Part shown: piece by piece, positions 14,492 to 31,979 of the stretch
How the letters are laid out: each line of letters opens with the position of its first letter
Position numbering within the stretch: position 1 is the first letter of the stretch
NCBI GenBank assembly: GCA_003056265.1
Contig: NBVN01000007.1
Span: 1-32,000 of the forward strand
From: Zestosphaera tikiterensis
GTDB taxonomy: Archaea; Thermoproteota; Thermoprotei_A; Sulfolobales; NBVN01
Direction: 5' to 3'
Length of the DNA stretch: 32,000 nt
Notes under the pieces: model-generated
The model's database searches: none
What the model was told of the DNA's origin: nothing
The model's input: only the letters and a program-made list of their open reading frames with translations
Translations under genes and position numbers: made by a program

Positions 14492-16198
14492 TCAGAAAAA
14501 CATTCCATGAAGACCCGAAAGCTTGTTTAGTGCTCTACCTAGCCTGAGAACTAGGTACAACCATAACTTTAGGAAGAGCTCAAAATGGTACTCATCAAAA
14601 CTGCTTAGATCTAAGATTTCTCCTGCCACTGACTTATTTGGATCCTCAGTACTTATAAGCTCCTTCAACTCTTTAATTACTTCACAATACCTCTTAAACT
14701 CATCTCCCATGAGCACTCTTCCCTTTTCTAGGACTTCATCTTGTTCTCCTAAGCTTAGCAAGTAGAGTATTTCAAACGCTGTTCTCATGGTTAACGGAAG
14801 ATCGCCAACAAGATCCTCTAACGTTCCAAACTCCCTGTTAGTTCTTTTTACATGAACTCCCCTCATGCCTCCTTCTTCCCTGCTTAATGTAGGCTCTGCT
14901 AGGGGATCATATCTCAGTATTTCACAGTTTCCATCCCAACATACTCTCGTGAAAACTGTAGCATTCTCATAAGTGCGTTGAGATGCAAGCGATACTAGAC
15001 TAGCGAATCTTGACGCAAGGTAGTCAAAGACCTCAGGTTCTTCAGCAATGATCTCCGAAAGTAGTCTAATGACCTTGGCATTAACCTCATAACGTTCATA
15101 TAAAATATAATGCAGTACTGTTGTAAGCCTCTTTTCTTCGTTGGTCGATGTTTCTATATATTCGCCTTTAAGACCTAGTTCAAACCTCTTCTTAATTTCT
15201 TCAGGAAGGTGATGAAGTCCGATCTCTAACCTATATCTGTCCACTAAGTTAAGGGGGATATCTAGGGAAGTCTTAGCGATTTCAACGAGTTTTCCTTTGT
15301 TACCTCCTTTGTTTAGGAAATCCTCCGATAGATTAAGAATTTCAGTAGCATATTTTCTTAGGGCATCGTCTTGAAAATATATTCTTAGGTACTCATCCCT
15401 TCGATTAACGAATTCTGGTTCAACAAGAACCCAAGTTACAGGCTCTACAACGATTCCTATTATTGAACTATAGAAACCTCGCAAAAACAAATGGTGAGTT
15501 AAAAAGTCCCTAAAGACTTCTACATGATCTGGGTTTTTACTAAATTCTCTAACAGCATTCTCAAGTTTTTTAAGCTCGTTAAAAGTTTCATTTCTCCCTA
15601 TACCATTACCTCCATTTTCTCTTGGAAACCCAGTAAATCTATGAAACTTCTCGAGTAGGTAGATAAGATCAAGCCTTTCTTTCCAGCTAAGGGCATCTAC
15701 CAGAGTAGCAAGGGATGTTCCTCTAAGTATCATCCAGTGCACGTATTCGTGTATAAAGGCTCTCATAAATCTGCTTTCCGGAGGAGATTTTAAGTTTAAG
15801 TTATATATATTGTTCTCTAGCTCATTAAGGATTCCCTTAATCTTAGTACTGTACAACAATTCACATCTTTCCCTACTTTCACCACTACACTGTAAACCCA
15901 ACTCTGTTACTGGTATTGGCCCATTGATATATATAATCCTACCAGTATACATGCCTTCGCTAACATACGATAGCCGTGTAGTCCTTGAAAGAGATAAGAG
16001 CTGGAAAGGGGTATGGTTCTCTATTATTATGCCAGCAAAGGGGTTAAGTAGTGGAATCCGTCTGCTAACTCTGATTACTTTTGGAAGAGTCTTAAAAGCT
16101 TGAGTAAGGATATACCTCTTAACGGATGCAGGTGATTTATTGAAGACATTAGCTATCAAGCGTAACATTCTATCACTCTTTCTTCTCCAGATCCTCAA
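14492..16198 (-). CDS. Large uncharacterised protein with an HExxH motif (putative metallopeptidase-like). Likely start is the ATG at 16168.
   Basis: HEYVH is encoded at 15737-15751 (checked on the DNA: CAC GAA TAC GTG CAC). The track start at 16198 is a TTG. The ATG at 16168 lies 4 nt after the TGA of the upstream wHTH gene. No other motif recognised. Confidence 0.7.
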   Translation of the reverse strand: MRIWRRKSDRMLRLIANVFNKSPASVKRYILTQAFKTLPKVIRVSRRIPLLNPFAGIIIENHTPFQLLSLSRTTRLSYVSEGMYTGRIIYINGPIPVTELGLQCSGESRERCELLYSTKIKGILNELENNIYNLNLKSPPESRFMRAFIHEYVHWMILRGTSLATLVDALSWKERLDLIYLLEKFHRFTGFPRENGGNGIGRNETFNELKKLENAVREFSKNPDHVEVFRDFLTHHLFLRGFYSSIIGIVVEPVTWVLVEPEFVNRRDEYLRIYFQDDALRKYATEILNLSEDFLNKGGNKGKLVEIAKTSLDIPLNLVDRYRLEIGLHHLPEEIKKRFELGLKGEYIETSTNEEKRLTTVLHYILYERYEVNAKVIRLLSEIIAEEPEVFDYLASRFASLVSLASQRTYENATVFTRVCWDGNCEILRYDPLAEPTLSREEGGMRGVHVKRTNREFGTLEDLVGDLPLTMRTAFEILYLLSLGEQDEVLEKGRVLMGDEFKRYCEVIKELKELISTEDPNKSVAGEILDLSSFDEYHFELFLKLWLYLVLRLGRALNKLSGLHGMFF

Positions 16199-16632: not shown

Positions 16633-17808
16633 TTATAGTATGGTTTGAACTTCTCTATGCTTAAACCTATTCGATTCAAATCTAATCGTTTTTCCTATGG
16701 CGCAGATTAGGGATCGTATCTTTTCTCTTAATTGGTAAACTTCATCTACTTTATCTTTAAGGACGGATATGTTTTTGTTGTCTATGGCTTCCTTCTTTAG
16801 GTTTTCTACTCTTTCGATGACTTCAAGATAGTTTGGATCTACTCTACGCGTGTTTATGAATTCCTTCTTAAACGCTTCTTTAACGCTCATACCTAAACGC
16901 TTCTCCAACTCCTCGACGCTCATTTCCTTAGGTAGATCATGCAAGGCTTTCAAAGCACGGGCAATAGCCTCCAGCATGATCACATAAGTTCGTTTTAGAG
17001 CATCTATTGCTTTAAGAAGCTCTAAAGCGGCAGATAAGTCAAGCATTTCAGAAACGAACTCATCCGCTTTATTTATCCATTCATCAACAAGAGTTCCTGG
17101 AACTTCCGTTACTTCTCCATGTTCTACCTTCTTTCTAAACTTTATAATGTCTTCGAGCCATTTAACATACTCTAACTTAAGCAGACCTGCGTCGACGAGC
17201 TTTTCCTTCACCTTTACGGGCAATTTACTAGGCGGGGACGGTTCTTGATCTAAGAGCATTAACACGGCTTGAGCTGAGTTGGTCATAGCTTTATAGCAGT
17301 TTTCCGCTACTATGAGAACCTTAGATGCTTTAGCTTCAAGCAACTTTCTAGGAACTTCCTCCAGATATTTTTCCGCAGCCTCCTTAGTCCTAGGTATTTT
17401 TCCACTCTTTAAGAGTATCTTCCAAGGCGTAAAGAAGCCTACATCGTATAGGGGTATCCCATCCTTGATAAAAGTGTATACTATTGGATGTCCATTACTC
17501 GCATATTCCGTGAATTCTGTTAAACTCCATAAATGTATGGAAAGCCTTCTCGAAACGTTACGGGCTATATTATTTAAAATATCTTCTATTTTATCCATAT
17601 TTATTTTAATTTCCTCTTCTTCTATATGAATAGTATCATCTATTATGACGAGGATATCTATGTCGCTGGATTCATTTAGTTCGTTTCGAGCAGCAGAACC
17701 AACTAACACAATAGACTTAATGAGTTTATTGATGTTTGCGTCACTAAGAACCTTTTTAACAAACAAGCTAACTATTTCCCCAACTTTAGACGCTAATTCC
17801 ATAGTCAA
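16633..17808 (-). CDS. Fused minimal nucleotidyltransferase (MNT) and HEPN-domain protein with an extra C-terminal helical region. Likely start is the ATG at 17802.
   Basis: MNT motif is VGSAARNELNESSDIDILVIIDD. The HEPN-like helical domain carries an Rx4H motif (FRKKVEHGE). The track start is a TTG. The ATG two codons in gives MELASKV. Confidence 0.85.
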   Translation of the reverse strand: MTMELASKVGEIVSLFVKKVLSDANINKLIKSIVLVGSAARNELNESSDIDILVIIDDTIHIEEEEIKINMDKIEDILNNIARNVSRRLSIHLWSLTEFTEYASNGHPIVYTFIKDGIPLYDVGFFTPWKILLKSGKIPRTKEAAEKYLEEVPRKLLEAKASKVLIVAENCYKAMTNSAQAVLMLLDQEPSPPSKLPVKVKEKLVDAGLLKLEYVKWLEDIIKFRKKVEHGEVTEVPGTLVDEWINKADEFVSEMLDLSAALELLKAIDALKRTYVIMLEAIARALKALHDLPKEMSVEELEKRLGMSVKEAFKKEFINTRRVDPNYLEVIERVENLKKEAIDNKNISVLKDKVDEVYQLREKIRSLICAIGKTIRFESNRFKHREVQTIL

Positions 17809-18635: not shown

Positions 18636-19310
18636 TTAACTAGTCTTTAGATTGTTCTTACCTAGCTTTAGCCCGTATTTCATCGCTGCCTCGTTTACTT
18701 TCTTTACGAACCTGGGGTAGCTTATCCTGTAGTTTTCGGCTCTCGCCATTCTCCATAAGTCTTTCTTGCTTAGGTATGGGTATTTACGGATTAGCTTAAC
18801 GACGAATTCCTCGGGGATCGACGGTGGTCTGCCGACGTGCTTCCCTTCCTTCCTAGCTCTTTCCATCCCCGCTTTGATTTTCTCCTTCAATGCCTCAACG
18901 TATTTTTGGTAGCCGTACGCTAAAGCCCTCACAACTATGTCGAACATTAACTTCCTCAACGCTTCGTCAGGTATTGCCGTCAGCGACTGAAGCCACTCCT
19001 CTTGATAAGTTATTACGTTCACGCCCCTCTCCCTTAAGCCGTCGAGTGTTTTAACTAGGTAGTCATACCTTCTTGAGATCCTGTCAAGCGAAAAAACGAG
19101 TATAGCGGCACCCTCCTTAGAAGCTAACTCAACCGCCTTAACCCACCCAACCCTCTCCTCAGGCTTCGTTTCATACCCGCTAACACCCGGATCCTCAAAC
19201 ACTCCAACAACCTCAACACCCCTCGACTCGGCGAACCTCCTTAAAGCAAGAACTTGATTCTCAACCTTCTGATCCTCCGTCGACACCCTAGCGTAGATCA
19301 CGGCCTTCAA
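18636..19310 (-). CDS. Serine recombinase (resolvase/invertase type: N-terminal catalytic domain, C-terminal HTH)
   Basis: MKAVIYARVSTEDQ (catalytic Ser motif), DPGVSGY, SLDRISRR, and the HVGRPP linker followed by an HTH-like C-terminus. TTG start. TTTAAATA lies about 35-40 nt upstream on the minus strand. Confidence 0.92.
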   Translation of the reverse strand: MKAVIYARVSTEDQKVENQVLALRRFAESRGVEVVGVFEDPGVSGYETKPEERVGWVKAVELASKEGAAILVFSLDRISRRYDYLVKTLDGLRERGVNVITYQEEWLQSLTAIPDEALRKLMFDIVVRALAYGYQKYVEALKEKIKAGMERARKEGKHVGRPPSIPEEFVVKLIRKYPYLSKKDLWRMARAENYRISYPRFVKKVNEAAMKYGLKLGKNNLKTS

Positions 19311-19891: not shown

Positions 19892-21805
19892 TTACTTATG
19901 GATTACAGTTAACGTTGGGGTTTTCTCAGGTTCAGCAAGTCTAGTGATTATGACGTACTTACCGTATTTACTAAGTTCAGAGACAACTTTGTCGAATCTC
20001 CTAGGGTCGAAAGCTACTAAAGCTTCATCCGCTATAATGGGTGCCACACCTTGATATTCCTCAATGATCTTTAACCTATAGCCTACGAGTACGGCTATCA
20101 ACGCTAGAGCTGTTCTCTCGCTAGTGCTTAAAACCTCAATCGGTTGTTCGTATTCTCTACCACTTGGGAATTTTCTAATAACTCTAATATCAAATACTCG
20201 CTTAAGCATACCAGTAGTGGGGTCTTTCTCCTCCCTTTTATATAGCCTCACACCTTTAATCCAAGTGAAGCCCAGTTCTTTAATGACTTCAGAAGCTATT
20301 CTAGAGAACTCATCGCTTATACGTGATAGTGTTTCATATAATTCCTTCTCAACGTTTTCAAGTTCTTTACTTGTCTTTTCGATCTTCTCCCTTACTTCAG
20401 TTAATTTCCTACCAGCTTCACTTCTTTTAGCGATTTTTTCTTCTAAATCTCTTATGTGTTGCTCTACTTCACCAAGCCTTCTCTCTAGCTCAGCTCTTCT
20501 GTCAGCAGCAACGCGTTCTTCTTCTGTAAGTTGCTTTCTTAATTCTTCCAACTCTTTTTCAATTAACCCCCTCTCGTTTTTAAGCCTTGCTACCTCATCT
20601 TTATAATGTTCAAACGCTCTCTCAAGCTCTTCAATCCTCCTCTTAAGAGATGGTAGCTTAACATCCACGATTTCTCTAACTTCGTTGTATTTCTTCTGTA
20701 GACTCTCTAACTCCTTCCATAATTCCTTAAGCTTTTCATTTGCGTTAGCTATCCTAACCTCATAATCTTTTACTATAGACTCCTTACTCTTCATAACCTC
20801 GTCTTCTACTTCCACCTCACGTCTAGACCAGAACTCTTCAGGGTTTTCAATAGGTTTACCGCATACTGGACACGCAGATGCTTTTGTAGCTTTAGCTAGG
20901 TGTACAACTGGGATTCTAGCGTCTTGACCAACGAGATACTCTCTACGTTCGTTCTCCAGCTTCTTTATAAGGCTGTCAGTCCTGTCTATTTCTCCTTTAA
21001 TCTTTGCTAACTCTTCCTCAGGATTCTCGTGAATGGCGTAAAACTCTCTAACCATAGTTTCATACCTCTCTAGATCCGCACGTGCGTCATCTATAGCTTT
21101 CGCAGTAGTTGCTATGATGCCCTCAGGTTTCTCTAGGTCTTCTATTCTCTTACTGACTTCACCAAGTCTTCTATTGAGGGTGGCTATCCTATCTTGTAAA
21201 CCTCTTACTCTTTCAATAGATATAGCCCTCAGCTTCTTAAGCTCTTCCTCTAAATCCTTCTTTAACTCCTCATATTTCTGTCTTTCCTCACTTACCTTCT
21301 TAAGTTCTTCAACATCCTTAAGGAGGAGGTTCTCCTCAGATTTTAGCTTATCTAACTCCTCCCTTAAGCTTTCCCTCATCTTTTCATACTCATCAAGCCT
21401 GAAGACCTTAACTAAGTAGTCAGTAATATCGGCGTTTGCTTGAGTTACAACCCTTCTGGCAACCTCCCCTAAGTAAGGATCTAATATGACATACTTCAAC
21501 CTATCGCTAACGATAACAGGCTTAGATTCAACCTCTAAAACCCTACCGTTTACTCTCTTAAACCTCCTAATGAATTCCCTACTGTCAATAACTATCTTTA
21601 TATATCCCTCATCAGCATCGATGTTTAGAAGCTGTTCAAGAGGGATAGTGTTGGGTGCGTACATCGCTAGTATAGCTTTAACAAGGGAGGTTTTACCAGC
21701 AGCATTCGGTGCTACAACTTCGTTTAACCCTTCACTAAACTCAAACTTATGTTTGCCTATAAGACCTCCTACATTTTCAACTTCGACCACTATCATGGGC
21801 ACCAC
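19892..21805 (-). CDS. SMC/Rad50-like ABC ATPase with a long coiled coil and a central CxxC zinc-hook-like motif. Likely start is Met4 at 21796.
   Basis: Walker A is APNAAGKTS. About 400 aa of E/K/L-rich heptad sequence follow. CPVCGKP is encoded at 20861-20872 mid-coil. The signature-like motif is LSTSERT and Walker B is PIIADEA. Met4 forms an ATGA overlap with the upstream gene's stop. Confidence 0.85.
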   Translation of the reverse strand: MVPMIVVEVENVGGLIGKHKFEFSEGLNEVVAPNAAGKTSLVKAILAMYAPNTIPLEQLLNIDADEGYIKIVIDSREFIRRFKRVNGRVLEVESKPVIVSDRLKYVILDPYLGEVARRVVTQANADITDYLVKVFRLDEYEKMRESLREELDKLKSEENLLLKDVEELKKVSEERQKYEELKKDLEEELKKLRAISIERVRGLQDRIATLNRRLGEVSKRIEDLEKPEGIIATTAKAIDDARADLERYETMVREFYAIHENPEEELAKIKGEIDRTDSLIKKLENERREYLVGQDARIPVVHLAKATKASACPVCGKPIENPEEFWSRREVEVEDEVMKSKESIVKDYEVRIANANEKLKELWKELESLQKKYNEVREIVDVKLPSLKRRIEELERAFEHYKDEVARLKNERGLIEKELEELRKQLTEEERVAADRRAELERRLGEVEQHIRDLEEKIAKRSEAGRKLTEVREKIEKTSKELENVEKELYETLSRISDEFSRIASEVIKELGFTWIKGVRLYKREEKDPTTGMLKRVFDIRVIRKFPSGREYEQPIEVLSTSERTALALIAVLVGYRLKIIEEYQGVAPIIADEALVAFDPRRFDKVVSELSKYGKYVIITRLAEPEKTPTLTVIHK

Positions 21806-22158
21806 CTGTTAAGCACGTGTTCGGTTATACCGAGCTTTTTAAGAGTTTCAACTTCGCTAGAGCTAAGACCCTTTGAAAGCCATCTTTCAGCAGCTCTCCT
21901 GATCTCCTTAGGTATCCAGTCTTCGTCAATATACCTAGCATACATCAGAGACGTCTGCAGACCCCTCTCCTTGGCTTTGAGATATGCTTGGTAAACGAAA
22001 GTAACTGAGTAACCATCGTCGAGACTGAGTAAGTATACAATATCGCCTCTCTTTAATACATCTACATGAATGGGATGCTTTTGCTTTATCTTGTTTAGCT
22101 TTGTCACAGTATTCCTATACAAGTTCAAATCTGGATCTTCAACCTTTAATATCAGCAC
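21793..22158 (-). CDS. Small protein (121 aa) translationally coupled to the Rad50-like ATPase
   Basis: ORF track. GTG start, with TATA-like CTTAAATA about 40 nt upstream. The basic/helical C-terminus (RRAAERWLSKGLSSSEVETLKKLGITEHVLNRW) could be an HTH, but this is not established. Confidence 0.6.
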   Translation of the reverse strand: MLILKVEDPDLNLYRNTVTKLNKIKQKHPIHVDVLKRGDIVYLLSLDDGYSVTFVYQAYLKAKERGLQTSLMYARYIDEDWIPKEIRRAAERWLSKGLSSSEVETLKKLGITEHVLNRWCP

Positions 22159-22222
22159 GTGTTATTTCACCAATAAATGGTAATGGTTTCAGAAGTATTT
22201 AAGCATTAATACAGAAATATTA

Positions 22223-22260
22223 AATAAAATCATTAATATAATAATATTAATGATTTTATT
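22223..22260. repeat. All-but-one A/T hairpin: 17-bp perfect stem and 4-nt loop, in the 129-bp spacer between the AAA+ gene and the 121-aa gene
   Basis: AATAAAATCATTAATAT / AATA / ATATTAATGATTTTATT, read directly. Confidence 0.6.
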
Positions 22261-22287
22261 AATACAAAAATATTAGAGCTTTAGAGT

Positions 22288-23046
22288 TCATATTACTTCG
22301 AGTCTCTCCAGCTTCTCTATGTAGTGCCTTATCACTATTCTCTCCACTTCTCTTGCGGATCTCGGCAACGGATTCATTGACGTTATCTCCTCCTTAACTC
22401 TGTTGTAGGGTACTCCGAGTTCTCTGCACCTCTTCTCTGCTATTGCTAAAGCCGTATCTATGTCGAGGGGTTTGAACTCTATCGGGTAGAGTCTGTCTAT
22501 TAGTGCTTTATCAACTAACTCGTACCAGTTGGTTGTTGCTATGACTCCTATTCTAGAGGTGTCTAGCTCGTCAAGCATGTGGAAGAAGACGTTGTCTTGG
22601 GCTATATGCCAAGACTCTATGCCTTCTCTCCCGCGTGACATGAATATTGACTCTACGTCGTCGAAGAGTATTATGGTATACCCCATAAGTTTTTTCGATT
22701 CTTCAAAAATCTCAACGATCCTTATCTCAGATTCGCCATATAGCGGTCTAGCTATGTCGGATGCGTCTACGAGGATAAGGTATACGTCCTTAAACTTTTT
22801 ACCTAATTCCCTAGCGACTGCGTAAGCAAGGCTGGTTTTCCCTGTTCCAGGCTCTCCATAGAGTAGGAAACCTTTAATACCTCTTTTAACTCCCTCTCTA
22901 AACTGATAGTAGAATGTCTTGAAGATTAGGTTGAATATCCTCTTATATTCCTCACCTACAAACCTACTGACGTCATAATCTTCAGGAACTCCAACAGCCT
23001 TAATTACCTTTAAAGGTTTGCTAAGTTCTTTAGCTCTTCTACTCAT
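22288..23046 (-). CDS. Classic-clade AAA+ ATPase, single ATPase module without a recognisable N-domain
   Basis: Walker A is LLYGEPGTGKTS. The pore-loop-region-like sequence is PLYGESEIRIVEIFEE. Walker B is IILFDDVE. Sensor-1/SRH is VIATTNWYELVDKALIDRL. Confidence 0.9.
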   Translation of the reverse strand: MSRRAKELSKPLKVIKAVGVPEDYDVSRFVGEEYKRIFNLIFKTFYYQFREGVKRGIKGFLLYGEPGTGKTSLAYAVARELGKKFKDVYLILVDASDIARPLYGESEIRIVEIFEESKKLMGYTIILFDDVESIFMSRGREGIESWHIAQDNVFFHMLDELDTSRIGVIATTNWYELVDKALIDRLYPIEFKPLDIDTALAIAEKRCRELGVPYNRVKEEITSMNPLPRSAREVERIVIRHYIEKLERLEVI

Positions 23047-23503
23047 AGGTTAATCTCCTTTTTCTAGATTCGTTTTCTAGGATATGCTTAATCATTATGT
23101 ACGTGTCTTTAGAAATTTCATATTCTTCGCAATATCCAGCAACTACTCCACCCATAATTGACCCGCTCTCTACATCAAAACGATCTTTTATGAATTTAAG
23201 CACCAGTTCATTTCTTTTTCTGCCTTCTGAATATTCTGAAGACGTAGAAGGTGAGGAGTACTTCTCTTCTATCGCATCTATAGGTATAGATTCCTTATGT
23301 TCATAAACGTGTATGTACCCGTGATTGTAGCCCGGATCGAACACGACGTAGTACTTTCTATCTTTACTTACGTAGAATAAGTAAAGACGACGGAAGTGCT
23401 CTCCCCACTTAGTGTTTTCACAGATGTTTACTTTAATACCCTCTATAGATCCTTTCGTATCTCTCCCTAACTCTCCTAACATACCTTTTAACACCTTCTT
23501 CAT
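23039..23503 (-). CDS. Hypothetical protein (154 aa), overlapping both neighbours
   Basis: ORF track. It shares an 8-nt overlap (ATGAGTAG) with the AAA+ gene start and a 50-71 nt overlap with the upstream 302-aa ORF. No motif recognised. Confidence 0.55.
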   Translation of the reverse strand: MKKVLKGMLGELGRDTKGSIEGIKVNICENTKWGEHFRRLYLFYVSKDRKYYVVFDPGYNHGYIHVYEHKESIPIDAIEEKYSSPSTSSEYSEGRKRNELVLKFIKDRFDVESGSIMGGVVAGYCEEYEISKDTYIMIKHILENESRKRRLTYE

Positions 23504-24341
23504 GCATTCTACACCATAGAATGTTTAACCTATATCCGTTTGAAGTAACTTGCTCAATGATGTCGTTACTTACCATAAATTCAAACGCTTCAGTTCTAAC
23601 GCTTCTCCACCACTCAATCGGCGGTCTTTTCTTATTTTCATCACTAAGGAAGTAGTTATCTACGTAGTTCACTCTAGCTACCTCCAACACATCCCTGATT
23701 CTCATTGAATGCGATTCAAGACCTGATAAAGTGTATATCATTGGAAGCTTGATAAACCAAGGTATCACGGGTTTCTCGCCGAGAGTTCTATGTAGTTTAA
23801 CTGCTGTGCTCATTATGTAGACACCTATTAACCCGCTTATGACACTTAGCATTTCTTTAAATTGTCTAGGGTCGATGAGCGTTACTAGGTGTTGAGCTAC
23901 GGGACCTACAAGTTGGAAGAATTCATCGTTTATTCTATACACATATCGAGGATCGTCACTACTAACCAAGATTTTATAATAAGGTAGCGGCTTCAGATAA
24001 TCCAGCAATCTATCTGTCGGTATCTGAAAAGCATAGCTCCATTCTTCAAGTATGTCCTTAGATATGTACAGTTTTGTCAAGTCTTTACTATAGTACGCTT
24101 CACCACAACGGTCAACAACAGACCATAGAATCTTAAGAGGTTTCTGCCTGAAGAAGCGGTACCTGAGCAAGACGTCTCTAAACCTAGAAGCTAAAGCATA
24201 TGCTTCACTAGGGCTAGAAAGTACGCGAGTTTCCTTCTTTGATGTTTGTGCGTTTAACTCATCAAGTATTGCAAGTATAGTCTCCTCTGTAAGGGGTTTG
24301 TAGTTTTTCAATGCCCAAACATTTACTGTTGGTTGAGCCAA
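23433..24341 (-). CDS. Hypothetical protein (302 aa)
   Basis: ORF track. TTG start overlapping the upstream ORF by 19 nt. No motif recognised. Confidence 0.65.
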   Translation of the reverse strand: MAQPTVNVWALKNYKPLTEETILAILDELNAQTSKKETRVLSSPSEAYALASRFRDVLLRYRFFRQKPLKILWSVVDRCGEAYYSKDLTKLYISKDILEEWSYAFQIPTDRLLDYLKPLPYYKILVSSDDPRYVYRINDEFFQLVGPVAQHLVTLIDPRQFKEMLSVISGLIGVYIMSTAVKLHRTLGEKPVIPWFIKLPMIYTLSGLESHSMRIRDVLEVARVNYVDNYFLSDENKKRPPIEWWRSVRTEAFEFMVSNDIIEQVTSNGYRLNILWCRMHEEGVKRYVRRVRERYERIYRGY

Positions 24342-25204
24342 GGTCTCCCCCTCGAAAGTCTTCTCTCCCTCTTCAACATGTAGTATCTACGGTAAGCTGG
24401 CGCTACCACCATGTTTGCGAAAGTTCCTGAGACTTCTAGGGGGTATGTCCTCACGATTATTTTGTTGTCGTAAAGCACTCCTATAGCTTTAAAGTATTCA
24501 ACTTCAAACCTATCCCTTAAAGGTCTTAAAGACGCTATGAGTTTCTTAGCTTCACTCCACTCGGTTGGTTCTATCGTTGGTTTAGTAACTACCGTTCCAT
24601 CTCTTTTAACGTAGGCTAAAGGCGTTAGCAAACCAATCATCGTGGTGTAGCTTTTTGGAAGTCTTGAAGTTTTCTGCATTACGTAAAGTGAGCTTATACC
24701 TGACACAACTTTATGGGGGTAGGAAAACGCGTCTGATTCAAAACCTGCGAGTGATTTAAAATCAACTTTTTCAGCAACGTAAACCGCTACGTGTCTAATA
24801 AGCTCGTTGATTACGTCGGGTTTAAGCCTGATTTTACTTGGTGTTGTATTTACAACGTCGGCAAGCCTTAAGTCTTCCATAGATTTAAAGGCTGACCTAA
24901 CGTTATCGACCTCATCCGGTTCAAAACCCGGCACTTCATCCTCAGAAATTTCATATAGGTTCATATCCTTCTTTAGGAAGCCGTAGCTAGCCTTAGCTAA
25001 AGAATAAACAAGCACCTTCTCTAGGCTTTTAGAAGTGAAGGGAAGGAAGTAAATTAACCCAGCGAAAAACGAAGAAACGTCTACATGACCCTGCACAACA
25101 GCTTCAAGAGCTACATCAACTGTAATACCCGCAAACCTTCTTAAGGAAACCCATCTCTTATCTATATATCTATAATCCACGTAAACTGACAAATGCACCA
25201 CCAA
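24323..25204 (-). CDS. Hypothetical protein (293 aa), first gene of the operon
   Basis: ORF track. GTG start. TATA-like TTTATAAG lies about 30 nt upstream on the minus strand (plus-strand 25226-25240 region). No motif recognised. Confidence 0.65.
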   Translation of the reverse strand: MVVHLSVYVDYRYIDKRWVSLRRFAGITVDVALEAVVQGHVDVSSFFAGLIYFLPFTSKSLEKVLVYSLAKASYGFLKKDMNLYEISEDEVPGFEPDEVDNVRSAFKSMEDLRLADVVNTTPSKIRLKPDVINELIRHVAVYVAEKVDFKSLAGFESDAFSYPHKVVSGISSLYVMQKTSRLPKSYTTMIGLLTPLAYVKRDGTVVTKPTIEPTEWSEAKKLIASLRPLRDRFEVEYFKAIGVLYDNKIIVRTYPLEVSGTFANMVVAPAYRRYYMLKRERRLSRGRPWLNQQ

Positions 25205-25516: not shown

Positions 25517-25910
25517 GTTATAGTTTTTCCCTCAATCTTCAGCTATTAGGACATGAAGTTGAAGTATAGACCTAATCGGATGCCACTCTTTCAGTCTTTT
25601 TCTATTGTTTCGATACCCGAGGTCTCTCAAAGCCCTCATAGTGTCGTAGATCAGCTGCGTCTTTCAGTCTTTTTCGATTGCTTCGGAGTATGAAGTGCTT
25701 GACTACGCCACGAAATACGTGGTGGGGGAGGACACCGCTTTCAGTCTTTTTCTATTACTTCCCTACTTCTTTCGTAGTCTTGAGGTTCTGCACTACGTGT
25801 TGCCTGAGCCATCTTTCAGTCTTTTTCTATTACTTCCCATATCCGCTTCTAATTTCGGCTTCGCCTTCCAGCCTAGACTCTAATACCTTTCAGTCTTTTT
25901 CTATTACTTC
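25517..25910 (-). CRISPR. CRISPR mini-array: five clear 24-nt repeats plus one heavily degenerate terminal repeat, with spacers of 49-53 nt
   Basis: Repeats start at 25588, 25661, 25738, 25813 and 25887. Plus-strand form is CTTTCAGTCTTTTTCTATTACTTC; transcribed-strand form is GAAGTAATAGAAAAAGACTGAAAG. The GAAAG 3' end sets the orientation to minus. The two low-coordinate repeats carry substitutions (TTGTTTC, CGATTGCTTC), and 25517-25540 is a decayed copy, consistent with a leader at the high-coordinate side. The spacers are unique. Confidence 0.85.
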
Positions 25911-26038
25911 AAGTTATTGTTTGACGTAGGAGTATTTAAATATTTCCGTGGTGGTTTTCGGAAAGACCATCAAACACCATCAGATGCCGACCATCACGTT
26001 GTCGGGTCGTAAACGTATGATTTATACTCCAGTTGTTA
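25911..26038 (-). promoter_or_regulatory. Putative CRISPR leader with a palindromic TATA-like box TATTTAAATA (25933-25942)
   Basis: A 128-nt unique sequence lies between the newest repeat (25887-25910) and an oppositely oriented solitary repeat (26039-26062). The TATA-like element lies about 23-32 nt from the first repeat. Confidence 0.45.
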
Positions 26039-26671: not shown

Positions 26672-27700
26672 GTGAGGAGAGGTGGGGATGGGGTGTCCAC
26701 GCGGTTCGATGTTGGGAATTATGTAGGCGAGGGTGTGGGGAGGAGGACGCACGCGACTGAGGATCCGCTGGAAGAAGCGCGGAGGCTGTACAGGGAGAAG
26801 GGGATCAGCTACACGCTGTGGTGGTTCATCAGAGAGATATGGGCTAGGCGTAGGCACGCGGTAAAGTTCGAAGACCTATTCAGGTTGCACCAGTACATCG
26901 CAGGTGCCCGGAGTAAGAACTCAACTAGAAAGGCGCTGAAGCGGTTGGAGGAATACGGGCTGATAGAGAACCTAGGCGACGGGTACTACAAACCGCTTAT
27001 CATGGATCAGGCAATAGTCGAAGGTTCCATAGACTTTAGCAGAATTAGAACAAGGGATCAGGTGTTAAGGAATCGCAAGGACGCTGTTGAAACGTCCATG
27101 CAGCTGAAGGATATGCCTAGGGAGTTGATGCCTGTGGTTAAAGAAGCACAGAAGCTGATAGAGCGGGGCGATAAGTGGAAGGCGGTAGACCTAATAGCAC
27201 ACACGTTATTACCAATCCGCAAAACCGGAGTCCTTATAGCTAGGAAGGACGACCTGTTTTTATATTATGAGAGGAAGACGGATAAGATGCACATGATAAG
27301 GAGCTGGCGACTCACAGCACTACTAGACTTTCTAGGAATAAAAGATGAAGTACTAGTCGCACACAGACACAGCGAGGCCGACGGCATTATCCGCAAGTTA
27401 TTCGGTTCACACGACAACGCCCGGAGGCTACACTACTTACTAAAGGAGAGGGGCTGGTTCGAATACCCGGCTGAAAACTATTTCTATAGAATCTTCGAGA
27501 ACCCCATGACCCACGACTGGTGGATCTCGGTCTACAAGCTAAACAGAGAAACAGACAGAATGGAAGAAGACCTCAGAGTAGAGGTCGGCAGAAGCGCAAT
27601 CACGGGGATTCAGGTGAAGGCCGGCACAATAGTGACGAGGGAGCACATTAAAAAAGAGAATGAAGACACATATTTCCGCCGCACGAAGGGGTGGATCTAG
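26672..27700 (+). CDS. Hypothetical protein with an N-terminal winged-helix-like segment (342 aa); start codon uncertain
   Basis: NSTRKALKRLEEYGLIENLGDGYYKP is wHTH-like. The region is visibly more GC-rich than its flanks. The GTG start is very close to GGAGGTGA, so the true start may be a few codons downstream. Confidence 0.65.
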   Translation: MRRGGDGVSTRFDVGNYVGEGVGRRTHATEDPLEEARRLYREKGISYTLWWFIREIWARRRHAVKFEDLFRLHQYIAGARSKNSTRKALKRLEEYGLIENLGDGYYKPLIMDQAIVEGSIDFSRIRTRDQVLRNRKDAVETSMQLKDMPRELMPVVKEAQKLIERGDKWKAVDLIAHTLLPIRKTGVLIARKDDLFLYYERKTDKMHMIRSWRLTALLDFLGIKDEVLVAHRHSEADGIIRKLFGSHDNARRLHYLLKERGWFEYPAENYFYRIFENPMTHDWWISVYKLNRETDRMEEDLRVEVGRSAITGIQVKAGTIVTREHIKKENEDTYFRRTKGWI

Positions 27701-29601: not shown

Positions 29602-29937
29602 ATGGTGATAAGTGGTATAGGGTTATCTACACCAGAAGAGCCTAAAGACGTTAAGAACTTCATAAAGTCCGTAAGAGCAGGACTTGGCGAAAGTCCCAAT
29701 ATGGACTACGACTCTCTCGCTGTTTGGAGTTTCAATAGACTTCCCAAATATCTCTGGAAGCTCTGGGGGGATGAGTTGATAAAGAGGGGTATTACATGGC
29801 AGAAGTTTCTAAGGATTTTGAAGCTCCATACTATAGATATTGTAGAGTGGGCGTTAAGGGATTCACTAAGCTGGGAGGAGCTTGTTAAAAGGATCGAGAA
29901 GAGCATTGATAGTTATTCGAGGAGTGGGAATAGATAA
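29602..29937 (+). CDS. Hypothetical protein (111 aa) translationally coupled to the methyltransferase
   Basis: ORF track. Its stop TAA overlaps the methyltransferase ATG by 1 nt (TAATG). No HTH recognised, so a C-protein role is not supported. Confidence 0.6.
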   Translation: MVISGIGLSTPEEPKDVKNFIKSVRAGLGESPNMDYDSLAVWSFNRLPKYLWKLWGDELIKRGITWQKFLRILKLHTIDIVEWALRDSLSWEELVKRIEKSIDSYSRSGNR

Positions 29938-31154
29938 TGGGTTGTGCGTACCATGTAAAAGATATGCATTTAGTCAGACTGACTTACCCTGGAAAGATTA
30001 GCAAAGAGGAACTCTATAAAATAGTGCAACCTGCAGAATTAAAGGTCGTGAAGGAGTTTAGAGTAGGCAAGCCACTTATAGATGATGGTTGGAGAAACAT
30101 GCTGATACTAGGAGATAATCTTCCCGTTCTTAAAGCTCTTCTACAAGATGATAGAATTCGTGGAAAGGTTAGACTCATATACATAGATCCACCCTTCGGT
30201 ACAGGATCTATTTACCGCGGTAAGAGGCATATAAGTGCAAGCTCAGAGGATGAAATAGCTTATCAAGATATGTCGCTAAGCCCAGAATACCTAGAGTTCC
30301 TGCGAAGGAGATTAATATTTCTATACAATTTGTTAGCCGAAGATGGATCTATATATGTTCACATGGATGTAGATGCTATACACTATGTGAAGGTGTTAAT
30401 GGATGAAATATTCGGCATAGAGAATTTTGCAAATGATATAGCCAGAGTTAAATGTAACCCAAAAAACTTTGAGAGAAGAGCTTACGGGAATATTAGAGAT
30501 TCGATACTCTTTTACGCTAAGAACTATGGAAAAAATGTATGGAATGAGCCTAGAGAGCCTTATACAGAAGAGGAAATTGAGAGACTCTTTCCTAAAGTGG
30601 ATAAAGATGGCAGAAGATATACCACAGTACCTCTACACGCTCCTGGCGAAACAAAGAATGGCCCTACAGGTCAATCTTGGAGAGGGATCAAACCACCGCC
30701 TGGGAGGCATTGGAGATATCCTCCAGAAGTCCTAGATGAATTAGATAGAAGGGGTCTTATTGAGTGGAGTAGCACAGGCAACCCTAGACTTAAGATATAT
30801 GCTGATGAATACGTAAAGAGAGGTAAGAGAATACAAGATGTGTGGCTGAACTATAAGGATCCAGTCTATCCTGAATATCCTACAGAGAAAAACTTAGAAA
30901 TGGTTATGAAGATTGTTGAAGTGTCTAGTAATGTTGGAGATATTGTATTGGACGCATTCTGCGGCTCAGGCACCTTGGCTGTCGCAGCTGAGAAGCTAGG
31001 CAGGAAGTGGATATGTATAGACATTTCACCGCTTGCTATAGAGATAGGTTTGAAAAGAATATTGGAGCTCAAGACTTATAGACCCTTTGTACTAGTTAAT
31101 GCTACTGGTAGAGAGTTACCTGAAAGGCTGAGAAAGTTCCTCGAAGGTATCTAG
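29937..31154 (+). CDS. DNA methyltransferase, N6-adenine/N4-cytosine family, beta-class motif order
   Basis: The catalytic motif IV, IYIDPPFGTG, is near the N-terminus. The AdoMet motif I, LDAFCGSGTLAVAAEKLGRKWICIDISP, is near the C-terminus. Confidence 0.92.
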   Translation: MGCAYHVKDMHLVRLTYPGKISKEELYKIVQPAELKVVKEFRVGKPLIDDGWRNMLILGDNLPVLKALLQDDRIRGKVRLIYIDPPFGTGSIYRGKRHISASSEDEIAYQDMSLSPEYLEFLRRRLIFLYNLLAEDGSIYVHMDVDAIHYVKVLMDEIFGIENFANDIARVKCNPKNFERRAYGNIRDSILFYAKNYGKNVWNEPREPYTEEEIERLFPKVDKDGRRYTTVPLHAPGETKNGPTGQSWRGIKPPPGRHWRYPPEVLDELDRRGLIEWSSTGNPRLKIYADEYVKRGKRIQDVWLNYKDPVYPEYPTEKNLEMVMKIVEVSSNVGDIVLDAFCGSGTLAVAAEKLGRKWICIDISPLAIEIGLKRILELKTYRPFVLVNATGRELPERLRKFLEGI

Positions 31155-31979
31155 GAGATACTCCTCTAGGAAAAGGGCCGACATAACAACTTTATCACCT
31201 ACAGCTACCTTTATCACTCTGTCTGTATACTTCTTATAATACCATACAATGCCATCAATTAGAGCTATGCCCTTTATTTTTACTCCTTTCATGACTCTCA
31301 GCATCTCCTCCATTTTTTCAACGAAGTTAAGTGTATTGCCTAGGTCTCTGTTTTGGGATCCACCTGGCGTGCTCAGAAACCTTGCCTCACCCACTATATA
31401 GATATCTTTAACTTTAGCTATTACATCGCGATTAAAGAACCCCTGTTCTGGTTCTTTTAGTCCAAGTCTATTCTTTATGAAATCTGCTATTGATTCATCT
31501 GAACCTGCGTAAATACATATTTCATTGCTCCTACATTCTAGTAGCTGATTTGGATTGTTTACAACGTTAAAAGGCTCTTTTCTAAACTTTCTATTTATCC
31601 ACTCCTTGAACTTCGCTCCAAGCATTCGGTTTATATCTTTAGGTCTTTCTACTCCTCTTATTATGTTGTCTAGACCCAGAGAAGCTGTGGCCTCGGCTAA
31701 TATCCTAATAATTTGAGGGTTACAACTTATGACCTTTTTACGATTAGAATCTCCTAAGTGACGCAATAGAGCTGCATAAGGATGTTCTATAGGGAATGGA
31801 TAATCCTTTAAACTAATTAGAAGAGTAACTAAATCTTCGTATTTTTCGCTTTGATAGAGACGTACTATCTGGTTCTTAACGTTATTTGGAAGAGGCCTTT
31901 CAGGAGGAAGTTCTGCAGGATAAATCTCAAGCAATTTATCAAGATAATTGCTTTTCTGAGCTAATTCCCATGTTTTCAA
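31116..31979 (-). CDS. Putative type II restriction endonuclease partner. The N-terminus may extend past the window end.
   Basis: It is convergent with the methyltransferase, and their 3' ends overlap by 39 nt. The sequence DIYIVGEARFLSTPGGSQNRD is a plausible PD-(D/E)xK-like core. From memory it resembles the E-x-x-F-x-S-x-x-G-S region of DpnII/MboI-type enzymes, but this is unverified. The track start is a TTG, and the frame stays open upstream to position 32000. Confidence 0.55.
   Translation of the reverse strand: MKTWELAQKSNYLDKLLEIYPAELPPERPLPNNVKNQIVRLYQSEKYEDLVTLLISLKDYPFPIEHPYAALLRHLGDSNRKKVISCNPQIIRILAEATASLGLDNIIRGVERPKDINRMLGAKFKEWINRKFRKEPFNVVNNPNQLLECRSNEICIYAGSDESIADFIKNRLGLKEPEQGFFNRDVIAKVKDIYIVGEARFLSTPGGSQNRDLGNTLNFVEKMEEMLRVMKGVKIKGIALIDGIVWYYKKYTDRVIKVAVGDKVVMSALFLEEYLLDTFEELSQPFR

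Follow-up and report, generated by a model that had tools for sequence, protein, structure and literature searches.

What does an SMC-like ATPase do when it is encoded together with an AAA+ ATPase and four genes of no recognised family? This question is raised by a locus of the archaeon Zestosphaera tikiterensis (assembly GCA_003056265.1), found in a stretch of 32,000 nucleotides (nt) at positions 1 to 32,000 of contig NBVN01000007.1, which is called the window below. Six genes, named g1 to g6 here, are packed on its minus strand at 19892-25204. Five of them form a unit that is conserved in fixed order among related loci, with g3 as an optional member. The large ATPase g6 is a full-length archaea-specific SMC-related protein (ASRP), and the cassette moves as a unit between archaeal genomes. 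The genes and the spacer that divides them are as follows, with protein lengths in amino acids (aa).

24323-25204, minus strand: g1, 293 aa; first gene of the cassette, paralogue of g2 by profile comparison
23433-24341, minus strand: g2, 302 aa; mostly helical in its predicted structure, paralogue of g1 by profile comparison
23039-23503, minus strand: g3, 154 aa; optional gene between g2 and the AAA+ gene
22288-23046, minus strand: g4, 252 aa; single-module classic-clade AAA+ ATPase
22159-22287, minus strand: spacer between g4 and g5, 129 nt, A/T-rich, with a perfect 17-nt palindrome
21793-22158, minus strand: g5, 121 aa; partner of the ASRP, with a predicted ferredoxin-like fold
19892-21805, minus strand: g6, the ASRP, 637 aa; SMC/Rad50-like zinc-hook ATPase

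The six minus-strand open reading frames (ORFs), their overlaps, the 129-nt spacer and its 17-nt stem had been reported in a preliminary description of the locus, and all were reproduced by an ORF listing and an inverted-repeat check. Taken from the coordinates, the overlaps are 19 nt between g1 and g2, 71 nt between g2 and g3, and 8 nt between g3 and g4. The stop codon of g5 (21795-21793) shares bases with the ATG of g6 Met4 (21796-21794), and through this ATGA overlap the two genes would be translationally coupled if g6 starts at Met4. Homologues of each cassette protein, at 33-98% identity, occur on dozens of contigs, and AlphaFold2 models g2 and g5 with high confidence; therefore the six ORFs are genuine genes and not chance ORFs. 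One protein on record with 100% identity to g5 comes from a metagenome-assembled genome of Zestosphaera tikiterensis (Desulfurococcales), the likely source.

Conservation of the cassette

Is this gene set found in other genomes? Homologues of g6 were gathered from a protein collection, from one representative genome per species and from metagenomes, giving 131 loci in total (numbered with the prefix L), and all ORFs of these loci were scanned with profile hidden Markov models (HMMs) of the six window proteins. The counts for the close clade refer to 30 non-redundant ASRPs, and for each gene only loci with enough upstream DNA were scored. In every sufficiently long contig of this clade the order is g1, g2, (g3), AAA+, g5, ASRP. 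The gene g5 is present at 29/29 loci, g2 at 24/24 and g1 at 20/20. The AAA+ gene is found at 26 of the 27 loci scored, and at 27/27 once L082 is included, because in this sole miss the gene lies slightly past the distance threshold. Only g3 is irregular, with 10/24. The conserved unit is thus five genes plus an optional g3, and its five constant members recur across genomes at 20/20 to 29/29. What had been described as a six-gene operon is therefore a co-conserved unit in fixed order, and one of five genes rather than six.

The association reaches well beyond the close clade. At 26 further non-redundant loci members of the AAA+ family are encoded directly upstream of ASRPs that have about 25% identity with g6; the carriers are Nanoarchaeota, Nitrosotalea, Promethearchaeota (Asgard), a Desulfurococcaceae metagenome-assembled genome (MAG), unclassified archaea and two bacterial MAGs. 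The layout there is one or two genes of ~243-330 aa, the AAA+ gene, a small gene mostly of ~120 aa (74-184), and the ASRP. Is the small gene the same as g5? In hhalign it aligns with g5 over the full length (88.8%, E 2.5e-6), and an HMM made from the distant small genes alone picks up close-clade g5 at E<1e-3. Judged by these profiles, the small gene between AAA+ and ASRP is homologous to g5 over the whole set. The distant ~270-aa gene pair consists of paralogues of each other (hhalign 100%). Two bacterial cassettes are complete for AAA+, small protein and ASRP, one in a Dehalococcoidia MAG (L020, on an 84-kilobase (kb) contig) and one in a Deferrimicrobium MAG (L025); a Dehalococcoidia contig is noted in the ASRP family paper too (PMC9389158). 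Because cassettes occur in bacterial MAGs, the label "archaea-specific" is not strict.

In the literature searched we found no description of an operon that joins an ASRP or another SMC-like protein with an AAA+ ATPase. The ATPase family itself is already known, and the novel part is the partnership of ASRP, AAA+ and small adaptor. The cassette is also more general than the window alone showed: membership in a known ATPase family lowers the strangeness of the locus, while the breadth of the partnership raises it.

Not every ASRP has these partners. The cassette is absent beside ClsN, Methanosarcinales and Bathyarchaeia ASRPs. At four Methanosarcinales loci (L027, L028, L030, L033) the gene after the ASRP encodes an RdfA homologue of ~210 aa, which reaches 97.8% with haloarchaeal RdfA in hhalign, and a conserved ~175-aa gene comes next; on this profile evidence the four loci extend the published Sph-RdfA pairing beyond haloarchaea. 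At five Bathyarchaeia loci (L035, L039, L040, L042, L048) a 499-aa ASRP-like ATPase is consistently followed by genes of ~131, ~350 and ~300 aa, another conserved uncharacterised set that is unrelated to the window cassette. Neither the partners in these two groups nor RdfA show similarity to g1, g2, g3 or g5 in profile and hhalign comparisons.

Several variants were seen among the loci. A permuted cassette at L098:563-4631 has the order 153 aa, ASRP, 260 aa, AAA+ homologue. Neither the 153-aa nor the 260-aa gene matched the g5/small or the g1/g2/up1 profiles significantly (up1 and up2 being the distant ~270-aa genes), and the two correspond to the other partners by position; immediately upstream, at 563-720, there is a direct repeat in 3 copies (GAACTTTATACCAA...). 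L071:3491-5044 and L073:5359-6885 each hold an additional, shorter ASRP-like gene of 509-518 aa (E ~1e-18 against the ASRP profile), directly after the cassette ASRP. At L084:5217-6146 there is an isolated C-terminal ASRP fragment (residues 333-637) on a 42-kb contig and without partner genes, probably a decayed copy. An additional g5 paralogue is encoded at L052:3213-3581, on the opposite strand and 2 kb upstream of the cassette.

The two ATPases

To which family does g6 belong? It matches the NCBIfam equivalog model NF045487, "archaea-specific SMC-related protein", with 345.5 bits (cut-off 300) and an E-value of 5.9e-103 over positions 1-593 of 593. Thus g6 belongs, over its full length, to the published ASRP family, that of coalescin (ClsN) and Sph. 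The earlier reading of an SMC/Rad50-like zinc-hook ATPase is borne out by its motifs and by this match; the view that it was just "Rad50-like", outside any named group, has to be given up. ASRPs were defined by Yoshinaga, Nakayama & Inagaki in 2022 as a clade holding Sulfolobus ClsN and Halobacterium Sph1/2; the zinc hook is present in most of them, and no apparent consensus was found among their flanking genes (PMC9389158). Table S1 of that paper, which is not orientation-normalised, lists an "AAA family ATPase" 1-2 genes from the ASRP in several rows, including the close-clade protein HHQ49854, an association unremarked in its text.

In g6 an N-terminal Walker A is followed by ~370 aa of coiled coil, indicated by several coiled-coil family matches in a Pfam scan, with a central CPVCG zinc hook (C312/C315), and by a C-terminal LSTSER signature and ADEA Walker B. 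This is the architecture of ASRPs, with Walker A and Walker B at the two ends and a CxxC hook in the middle of the coiled coil. Invariant in 15 g6 homologues are G37-K38-T39, C312-P313-x-C315, L559-S-T-S-E-R564 and D593-E594. The nearest solved relatives by sequence are Rad50 heads, in their N-lobes only.

The product of g4 had been called a classic AAA+ ATPase, and it scores 80.3 bits against Pfam PF00004 (cut-off 21.2, E 2.2e-22). It is one 252-aa module with merely a ~55-aa N-terminal extension. Among solved structures its best matches are to the D2 domains of Cdc48/p97/VAT (E 2e-25), and it also matches the CdvC model of NCBIfam (6.5e-12). In 57 members of its family the GxxGxGKT motif, the pore loop Y/W103-G104, sensor 1 (T171-T172-N173), D184-R185 with one arginine finger and the sensor-2 arginine R232 are invariant. 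So is the Walker B, which reads D129-D130-x-E132, that is DDxE versus the usual DExD. An intact pore loop speaks for a remodeller that threads proteins. All motifs that had been read from the two ATPases were confirmed: GEPGTGKT, ILFDDVE and ATTN in g4; APNAAGKTS, LSTSERT, IIADEA and CPVCG in g6.

Accessory proteins

What are the other four proteins? Only two of the six products were readable to begin with, and this is still so, for g1, g2, g3 and g5 have no match in Pfam, NCBIfam, PADLOC or PHROGs. The profiles of g2 and g5 gave 0 matches against PDB sequences, and ten distant counterparts of the accessory proteins gave nothing usable in Pfam and NCBIfam scans. No housekeeping or virus-structural family emerged from the profile and predicted-structure checks of the partners (Pfam, NCBIfam, PHROGs, PDB). 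The four had been described as ORFans. This stands as far as family matches are concerned; it does not stand for g1 and g2 as two unrelated proteins, which align in hhalign at 100% with E 8e-44 over 254 columns and are paralogues by this comparison.

The AlphaFold2 model of g2 (predicted local distance difference test (pLDDT) 93.7, predicted template-modelling score (pTM) 0.91) consists mainly of helices, among them a long one at the C terminus, and includes two winged-helix-like units. Foldseek searches with it against PDB and BFVD returned nothing below E 0.05. Local winged helix-turn-helix (wHTH) matches were to MarR/ArsR regulators, Rio2-N and AspA, and there was a very weak match to 9uxh_D, a chain of type II Lamassu LmuACB (E 0.1, probability 0.25). 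An exhaustive search of 1.84 billion representative proteins with a g2+g1 profile gave 12 matches, all from the same narrow family, and no bridge to the distant ~270-aa genes was found among these representatives. By this search g1/g2 is a clade-restricted family.

For g5 the AlphaFold2 model (pLDDT 90.7, pTM 0.86) shows a ferredoxin-like beta-alpha-beta-beta-alpha-beta domain and then three helices, and its Foldseek matches in PDB are only generic or de novo designed ferredoxin folds. Could g5 be a hidden enzyme? It has an acidic cluster, H31/D33/D47/D48 (H-x-D...D-D), that is conserved in the close clade alone; what the family as a whole keeps is limited to core hydrophobic positions and an [IL]-P junction motif. 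Because the cluster is not kept outside the close clade, the enzyme was rejected and g5 is probably a non-catalytic adaptor. Counterparts of g3 elsewhere have 63-137 aa, and a domain was recognised in none of the family scans.

Mobility and flanking genes

Does the cassette stay in place when its carriers diverge? At ASRP identities of >=95%, cassette loci share 73% of their flanking ORFs. The share falls to 1% at 70-95% identity and is again 1% at 50-70%. Sulfolobales clsN loci share 83% at 70-95%, 74% at 50-70% and still 65% below 50%. Because 1% of flanking ORFs are shared at 50-95% ASRP identity, compared with 65-83% for the clsN loci, the cassette is mobile: it moves horizontally, as a unit, between archaeal genomes. 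Close-clade ASRPs at 53-55% identity are found in Desulfurococcales, in a Guaymas Thermoprotei MAG and in the korarchaeon Ca. Methanodesulfokora, and single hot-spring metagenomes hold many distinct variants.

The neighbours are typical genomic-island genes, namely restriction-modification (R-M) genes, toxins and mobile elements. As raw counts, 143 non-redundant flanking ORFs include ATPase_2 and N6_N4 methylases (5 each), DUF2400, PIN and helicases (3 each), and DarT, DDE transposases, NOV_C, PAPS reductase, SNF2, ResIII, HerA and MCM_C (2 each). PADLOC finds five type II methylases in the flanks, and the gene right after the L001 cassette matches PDC-M57B (2e-55). Immediately downstream of the L018 cassette lie a DndC-like PAPS reductase, a NucS_C-like protein and a BrxC/D-like ATPase. 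The conflict-type neighbourhood noted for the window thus has its counterpart in related loci, with R-M genes, DarT, PIN and transposases. Directly downstream of the cassette and on the same strand, HerA (DUF87) and NurA are encoded at L102:8909-11653, and NurA at L061:7637-8809, where there is also a radical SAM gene; NurA with or without HerA is downstream at 2 of ~45 loci. In archaea HerA and NurA are partners of Rad50-Mre11. Right after an Asgard cassette, at L032:8155-11714, come two genes of 273 aa and 253 aa and one for an SMC-like ABC ATPase of 665 aa (AAA_23/AAA_15/SMC_N); the three may form another SMC-like system in tandem with the first.

Comparison with known systems

Partners are what define SMC-family complexes: kleisin with KITE or HAWK subunits, Mre11, or LmuA and LmuC. 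Do any of the known partner sets correspond to the cassette? The preliminary description could map the locus to none of Lamassu, Wadjet, Gabija, PARIS, Septu, Dnd and CBASS, and the PADLOC models agree; the cassette belongs to no described multi-gene system that could be tested.

The nearest system in overall plan is Lamassu (LmuA-LmuC-LmuB, DdmABC or ABC-3C). It likewise has a small gene in front of a Rad50-like ATPase of ~640-650 aa whose coiled coils are short and carry a CPxCG hook, and it is likewise horizontally mobile and found in defence islands. Its ATPase LmuB has ~650 aa, short coiled coils and often a CPxCG hook, with a small LmuC upstream, and an E-to-Q change in Walker B is typical (PMC10586767). 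In g6, unlike LmuB, the Walker B glutamate is retained in the invariant D593-E594. The PADLOC LmuB match to g6 has E 1e-19, but the coiled-coil fragment by itself gives 4.5e-15, the N-lobe yields generic P-loop matches only and the C-lobe none to LmuB. No LmuB chain appeared in PDB sequence searches with g6 at E<=10. LmuB membership was rejected, since the matches stem from the coiled coil and the heads are not LmuB-like. For g1 to g5 there was no LmuA or LmuC match in PADLOC and no effector domain, and Lamassu, unlike the cassette, has neither an AAA+ ATPase nor a paralogous winged-helix pair.

Wadjet/MksBEFG (JetABCD), which acts against extrachromosomal DNA, and the SMC-kleisin-KITE complexes also combine a coiled-coil ABC ATPase with winged-helix-containing subunits, but the cassette ATPase has a zinc hook and not a hinge. 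The JetA, JetB, JetD/Toprim, kleisin and KITE models of PADLOC matched none of the cassette proteins, and the JetC matches of g6 come from the coiled coil or the P-loop only. Rad50 is, like g6, a zinc-hook coiled-coil ABC ATPase, and the g6 N-lobe is nearest to Rad50 heads; the coiled coil of g6, however, is much shorter. Rad50 equivalog models give g6 19-58 bits against cut-offs of 700-1087 (NF003034, 58 vs 700; Sulfolobales Rad50, 43.1 vs 1000), and Pfam finds no Mre11 phosphoesterase (Metallophos domain) in the cassette. Hence the locus is not a fragment of a Rad50-Mre11 operon.

Sph-RdfA resembles the cassette in that an ASRP is paired with a small syntenic partner gene. RdfA (176-203 aa) reaches at most 1.1% in hhalign (<=1.1%) with g1, g2, g3, g5 and the distant counterparts, no cassette partner has an RdfA match in NCBIfam, and the Sph loci examined, unlike the cassette, lack an AAA+ ATPase. 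With Cdc48/VAT, Vps4/CdvC, NSF and TRIP13, g4 shares a classic-clade AAA module with the conserved aromatic-Gly pore loop. It differs from known AAA+ remodellers in being dedicated to an SMC-like ATPase, for which no precedent was found in the literature searched. Its best PADLOC match is TRIP13 (5e-17), a generic AAA similarity. CBASS of the TRIP13-HORMA type was rejected, as neither HORMA nor CD-NTase was matched in the cassette by Pfam or PADLOC. Matches to mad3/mad8 of MADS are weak, and the MADS paper gave no informative domain link.

Relation to coalescin

How is g6 related to ClsN, which belongs to the same family? Both are ~600-640 aa long, with Walker A at one end, Walker B at the other and a zinc hook in the middle. 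Yet clsN is a stand-alone gene whose synteny is conserved and which has neither AAA+ nor g5 nor g1/g2 beside it, and g6 is not an orthologue of ClsN: the two are ~25% identical, fall in separate clades and have unrelated flanks. A bootstrapped neighbour-joining tree was built from 571 alignment columns with bounded distance and 200 replicates; it is unrooted and the method crude. The close clade and the ClsN clade were each recovered in 200/200 replicates, ClsN with L098 in 146 and the window clade with ClsN and L098 in 99. The ASRP nearest to the Sulfolobales ClsN clade is thus the AAA-linked L098. Because AAA-linked loci fill most deep branches of this rough tree, it suggests, as a hypothesis, that ClsN descends from an AAA-linked ancestor and has lost its partners.

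In Sulfolobales an ORF of 858-896 aa with a weak match to the ASRP profile lies ~5-8 kb upstream of clsN on the same strand (L012, L015, L019, L022, L023, L031, L092, L093, L097, L100, L101, L105). By its size it would be Rad50; if so, coalescin is encoded close to the Rad50 locus.

Proposed role and alternatives

Then what does the cassette do? The reading that we favour, and to which we give about an even chance, is that this mobile cassette acts as an ASRP-centred complex with a conflict-type role against foreign DNA. It is favoured because the cassette is mobile, has no recognisable effector and lies in islands rich in restriction, toxin and mobile genes. From the conserved gene set, the motifs and the predicted folds we infer a complex that would work as follows. 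The ASRP would dimerise through its CPxC zinc hook, and ATP-driven engagement of the heads would bind or entrap DNA, as in its Rad50/SMC relatives. The g5 protein, made in fixed proportion with the ASRP, would dock on it as an adaptor. The winged-helix proteins g1 and g2 would pair as a heterodimer and might bind DNA, the ATPase heads or both, akin to the tandem-winged-helix subunits of the KITE type. An AAA+ hexamer could thread a subunit or a target protein through its pore and so load, reset or dismantle the complex. Because there is no effector domain, the effect on DNA would be mechanical, such as entrapment, compaction or silencing, and not cleavage. The most likely target is extrachromosomal or invading DNA, followed by the upkeep of the mobile DNA that carries the cassette. 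The earlier suggestion, an SMC-like module that senses DNA and is coupled to an AAA+ remodeller and to effectors of unknown kind, is still reasonable as a hypothesis.

Several findings weigh against this role. The distant ~270-aa genes (up1/up2) have no detectable sequence similarity to g1/g2 in hhalign, and for this reason a universal four-component complex is no more than a possibility. The KITE-like view of g1/g2 leans on secondary-structure elements and local wHTH matches of a predicted structure, and Foldseek searches with the g2 model did not retrieve ScpB, MukE or Nse proteins. With its DDxE Walker B the AAA+ protein may hydrolyse ATP slowly. Family, PDB and Foldseek searches turned up neither a nuclease, protease or NADase domain nor that of another effector in the six proteins, which leaves an immune function without an identified executioner. 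The defence genes in the flanks are raw counts, not set against matched random loci. Relatives were absent from the 2.9 million viral contigs of IMG/VR, and PLSDB plasmids held only haloarchaeal Sph-type ASRPs and never the cassette, so viral origin and plasmid carriage were both rejected. Moreover, the known members of the family have other duties: ClsN acts in chromosome compartmentalisation, and Sph in cell shape and gene conversion (PMC9389158, PMC10869688, PMC11276520).

Could the cassette then organise the host chromosome? As a nucleoid organiser or condensin substitute with the AAA+ protein as loader and unloader, it could matter in Desulfurococcales without SMC, and this order is reported to lack SMC (PMC10769869). 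That g6 is an ASRP like ClsN, that effector domains were not found, and that ClsN is nearest to the AAA-linked L098 (146/200), with the window clade joining in 99/200, would all suit such a role. We nevertheless regard it as unlikely. The flanks are unconserved even at 70-95% ASRP identity while clsN loci are strongly syntenic, the distribution over phyla is sparse and patchy and includes bacteria, and several distinct variants occur together in single metagenomes. For core chromosome machinery it would also be odd that g1/g2 does not extend beyond a single narrow clade and gives way to unrelated sequences at other loci. Mobility itself would suit a maintenance or partition module of a mobile element, serving segregation, replication control or the exclusion of competitors. 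The cassette moves as a unit, a serine recombinase lies in the window, DDE transposases and MCM_C-containing genes lie near other cassettes, and haloarchaeal ASRPs are frequent on megaplasmids in PLSDB. This explanation seems to us quite unlikely, however, for no integrase, replication gene or transfer RNA (tRNA)/attachment-site (att) signature is consistently alongside, the viral and plasmid searches were empty for this cassette type, and the flanks are mostly of the R-M and toxin type, not conjugation or replication genes. A tRNA/att integration signature was rejected for the window, which has no tRNA genes.

Two further roles have a known system as their model. In a divergent Lamassu abortive-infection system the ASRP would be LmuB, g5 would be LmuC, and AAA+, g1 and g2 would take the place of the effector LmuA. 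The shared plan of a ~640-aa hook ATPase preceded by a small gene (PMC10586767), the LmuB matches at 1e-19 and the faint resemblance of g2 to the 9uxh chain speak for it. But the origin of these matches in the coiled coil, the generic P-loop heads, the missing LmuB chain in the PDB searches, the intact Walker B and the absence of LmuA and LmuC matches, with the curated ASRP model matched instead, make it very improbable. The present search data already indicate that the ASRP heads lie outside the LmuB clade. The other model is cytoskeletal, with ASRP filaments or scaffolds that determine cell shape and are remodelled by a Vps4/CdvC-like AAA+ protein; arcadin-4 with crenactin would be a parallel. 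In its favour g4 belongs to the classic clade that includes CdvC, as its NCBIfam match shows, and Sph3 and RdfA are needed for the rod shape of Haloferax (PMC10869688). RdfA is unrelated to all the partners, though, mobility and island context oppose a shape determinant, and the intact ABC head motifs and winged-helix proteins point to DNA, so that we find this role hardly credible.

Why does the cassette matter? ASRPs are the least understood SMC-like branch, and over at least five archaeal phyla, and in some bacteria too, a large part of them is now tied to an AAA+ protein and a small adaptor. To this AAA+/adaptor/ASRP core the thermophile cassettes add a winged-helix paralogue pair. A dedicated AAA+ subunit in an SMC-like complex has no described precedent in the literature searched, and the list of subunits is now concrete enough for biochemistry. 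The cassette is also relevant to Desulfurococcales in view of the reported lack of canonical SMC. A bolder version, possible but clearly short of probable, is that the cassette stands for an unrecognised, nuclease-free class of SMC-like systems, in which a mobile ASRP with an adaptor and an AAA+ unfoldase entraps or silences foreign DNA, and of which ClsN is possibly the domesticated, partner-less descendant. If true, foreign DNA would be dealt with here in a new way that needs no nuclease, and coalescin would have a possible origin.

Transcription and neighbours of the cassette in the window

Are the genes transcribed together? The hairpin in the spacer between g4 and g5 is a perfect 17-nt A/T inverted repeat (22223-22239 / 22244-22260) with a 4-nt loop. 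Of 30 distinct related spacers, 8 contain inverted repeats that are perfect over 10-19 nt, with TTTATA in several of these. The loci with palindromic AAA+-g5 spacers are L001, L010, L054, L070, L074, L078, L079 and L081, and the sequences differ. Such palindromes may be operators that overlap an archaeal TATA box, and the spacer is likely an internal promoter/operator for g5-g6. Our promoter scan used bacterial-type promoter models only. Since a palindromic, promoter/operator-like spacer parts g4 from g5, there are probably two transcription units, g1-g4 and g5-g6; given that such spacers recur, this is more probable than the single operon of six genes proposed before.

A domain scan of the window and a search for repeats gave these further features.

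14492-16198: ORF of 568 aa without Pfam match
16633-17808: nucleotidyltransferase (MNT)
18636-19310: resolvase (serine recombinase)
25588-25912: five 26-nt repeats with 73-77-nt spacing, without cas genes
26672-27700: ORF of 342 aa without Pfam match
29937-31979: N6_N4 methylase and Tsp45I endonuclease

The serine recombinase, the MNT gene, the R-M pair and the CRISPR-like array had all been recognised at the outset and are confirmed as neighbours. On the minus strand the array repeat ends in ...ACTGAAAG, and the degenerate repeats are at the low-coordinate end. This repeat end resembles the crenarchaeal 8-nt CRISPR RNA handle, AUUGAAAG. Because of the handle-like repeat end and the position of the degenerate repeats, transcription of the array probably runs on the minus strand like that of the operon, which would place the array trailer 384 nt upstream of g1. 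Does the array belong to the cassette, which had been described as lying next to an orphan CRISPR array? The array is there, but no comparable one was found beside any other close-clade cassette. Its adjacency is thus incidental, and a CRISPR association of the cassette was rejected. Short repeats of 3-4 copies occur at two distant AAA-linked loci, L032 and L098. The 26-28 kb stretch of the window has a G+C content of 0.46, against a window average of ~0.40.

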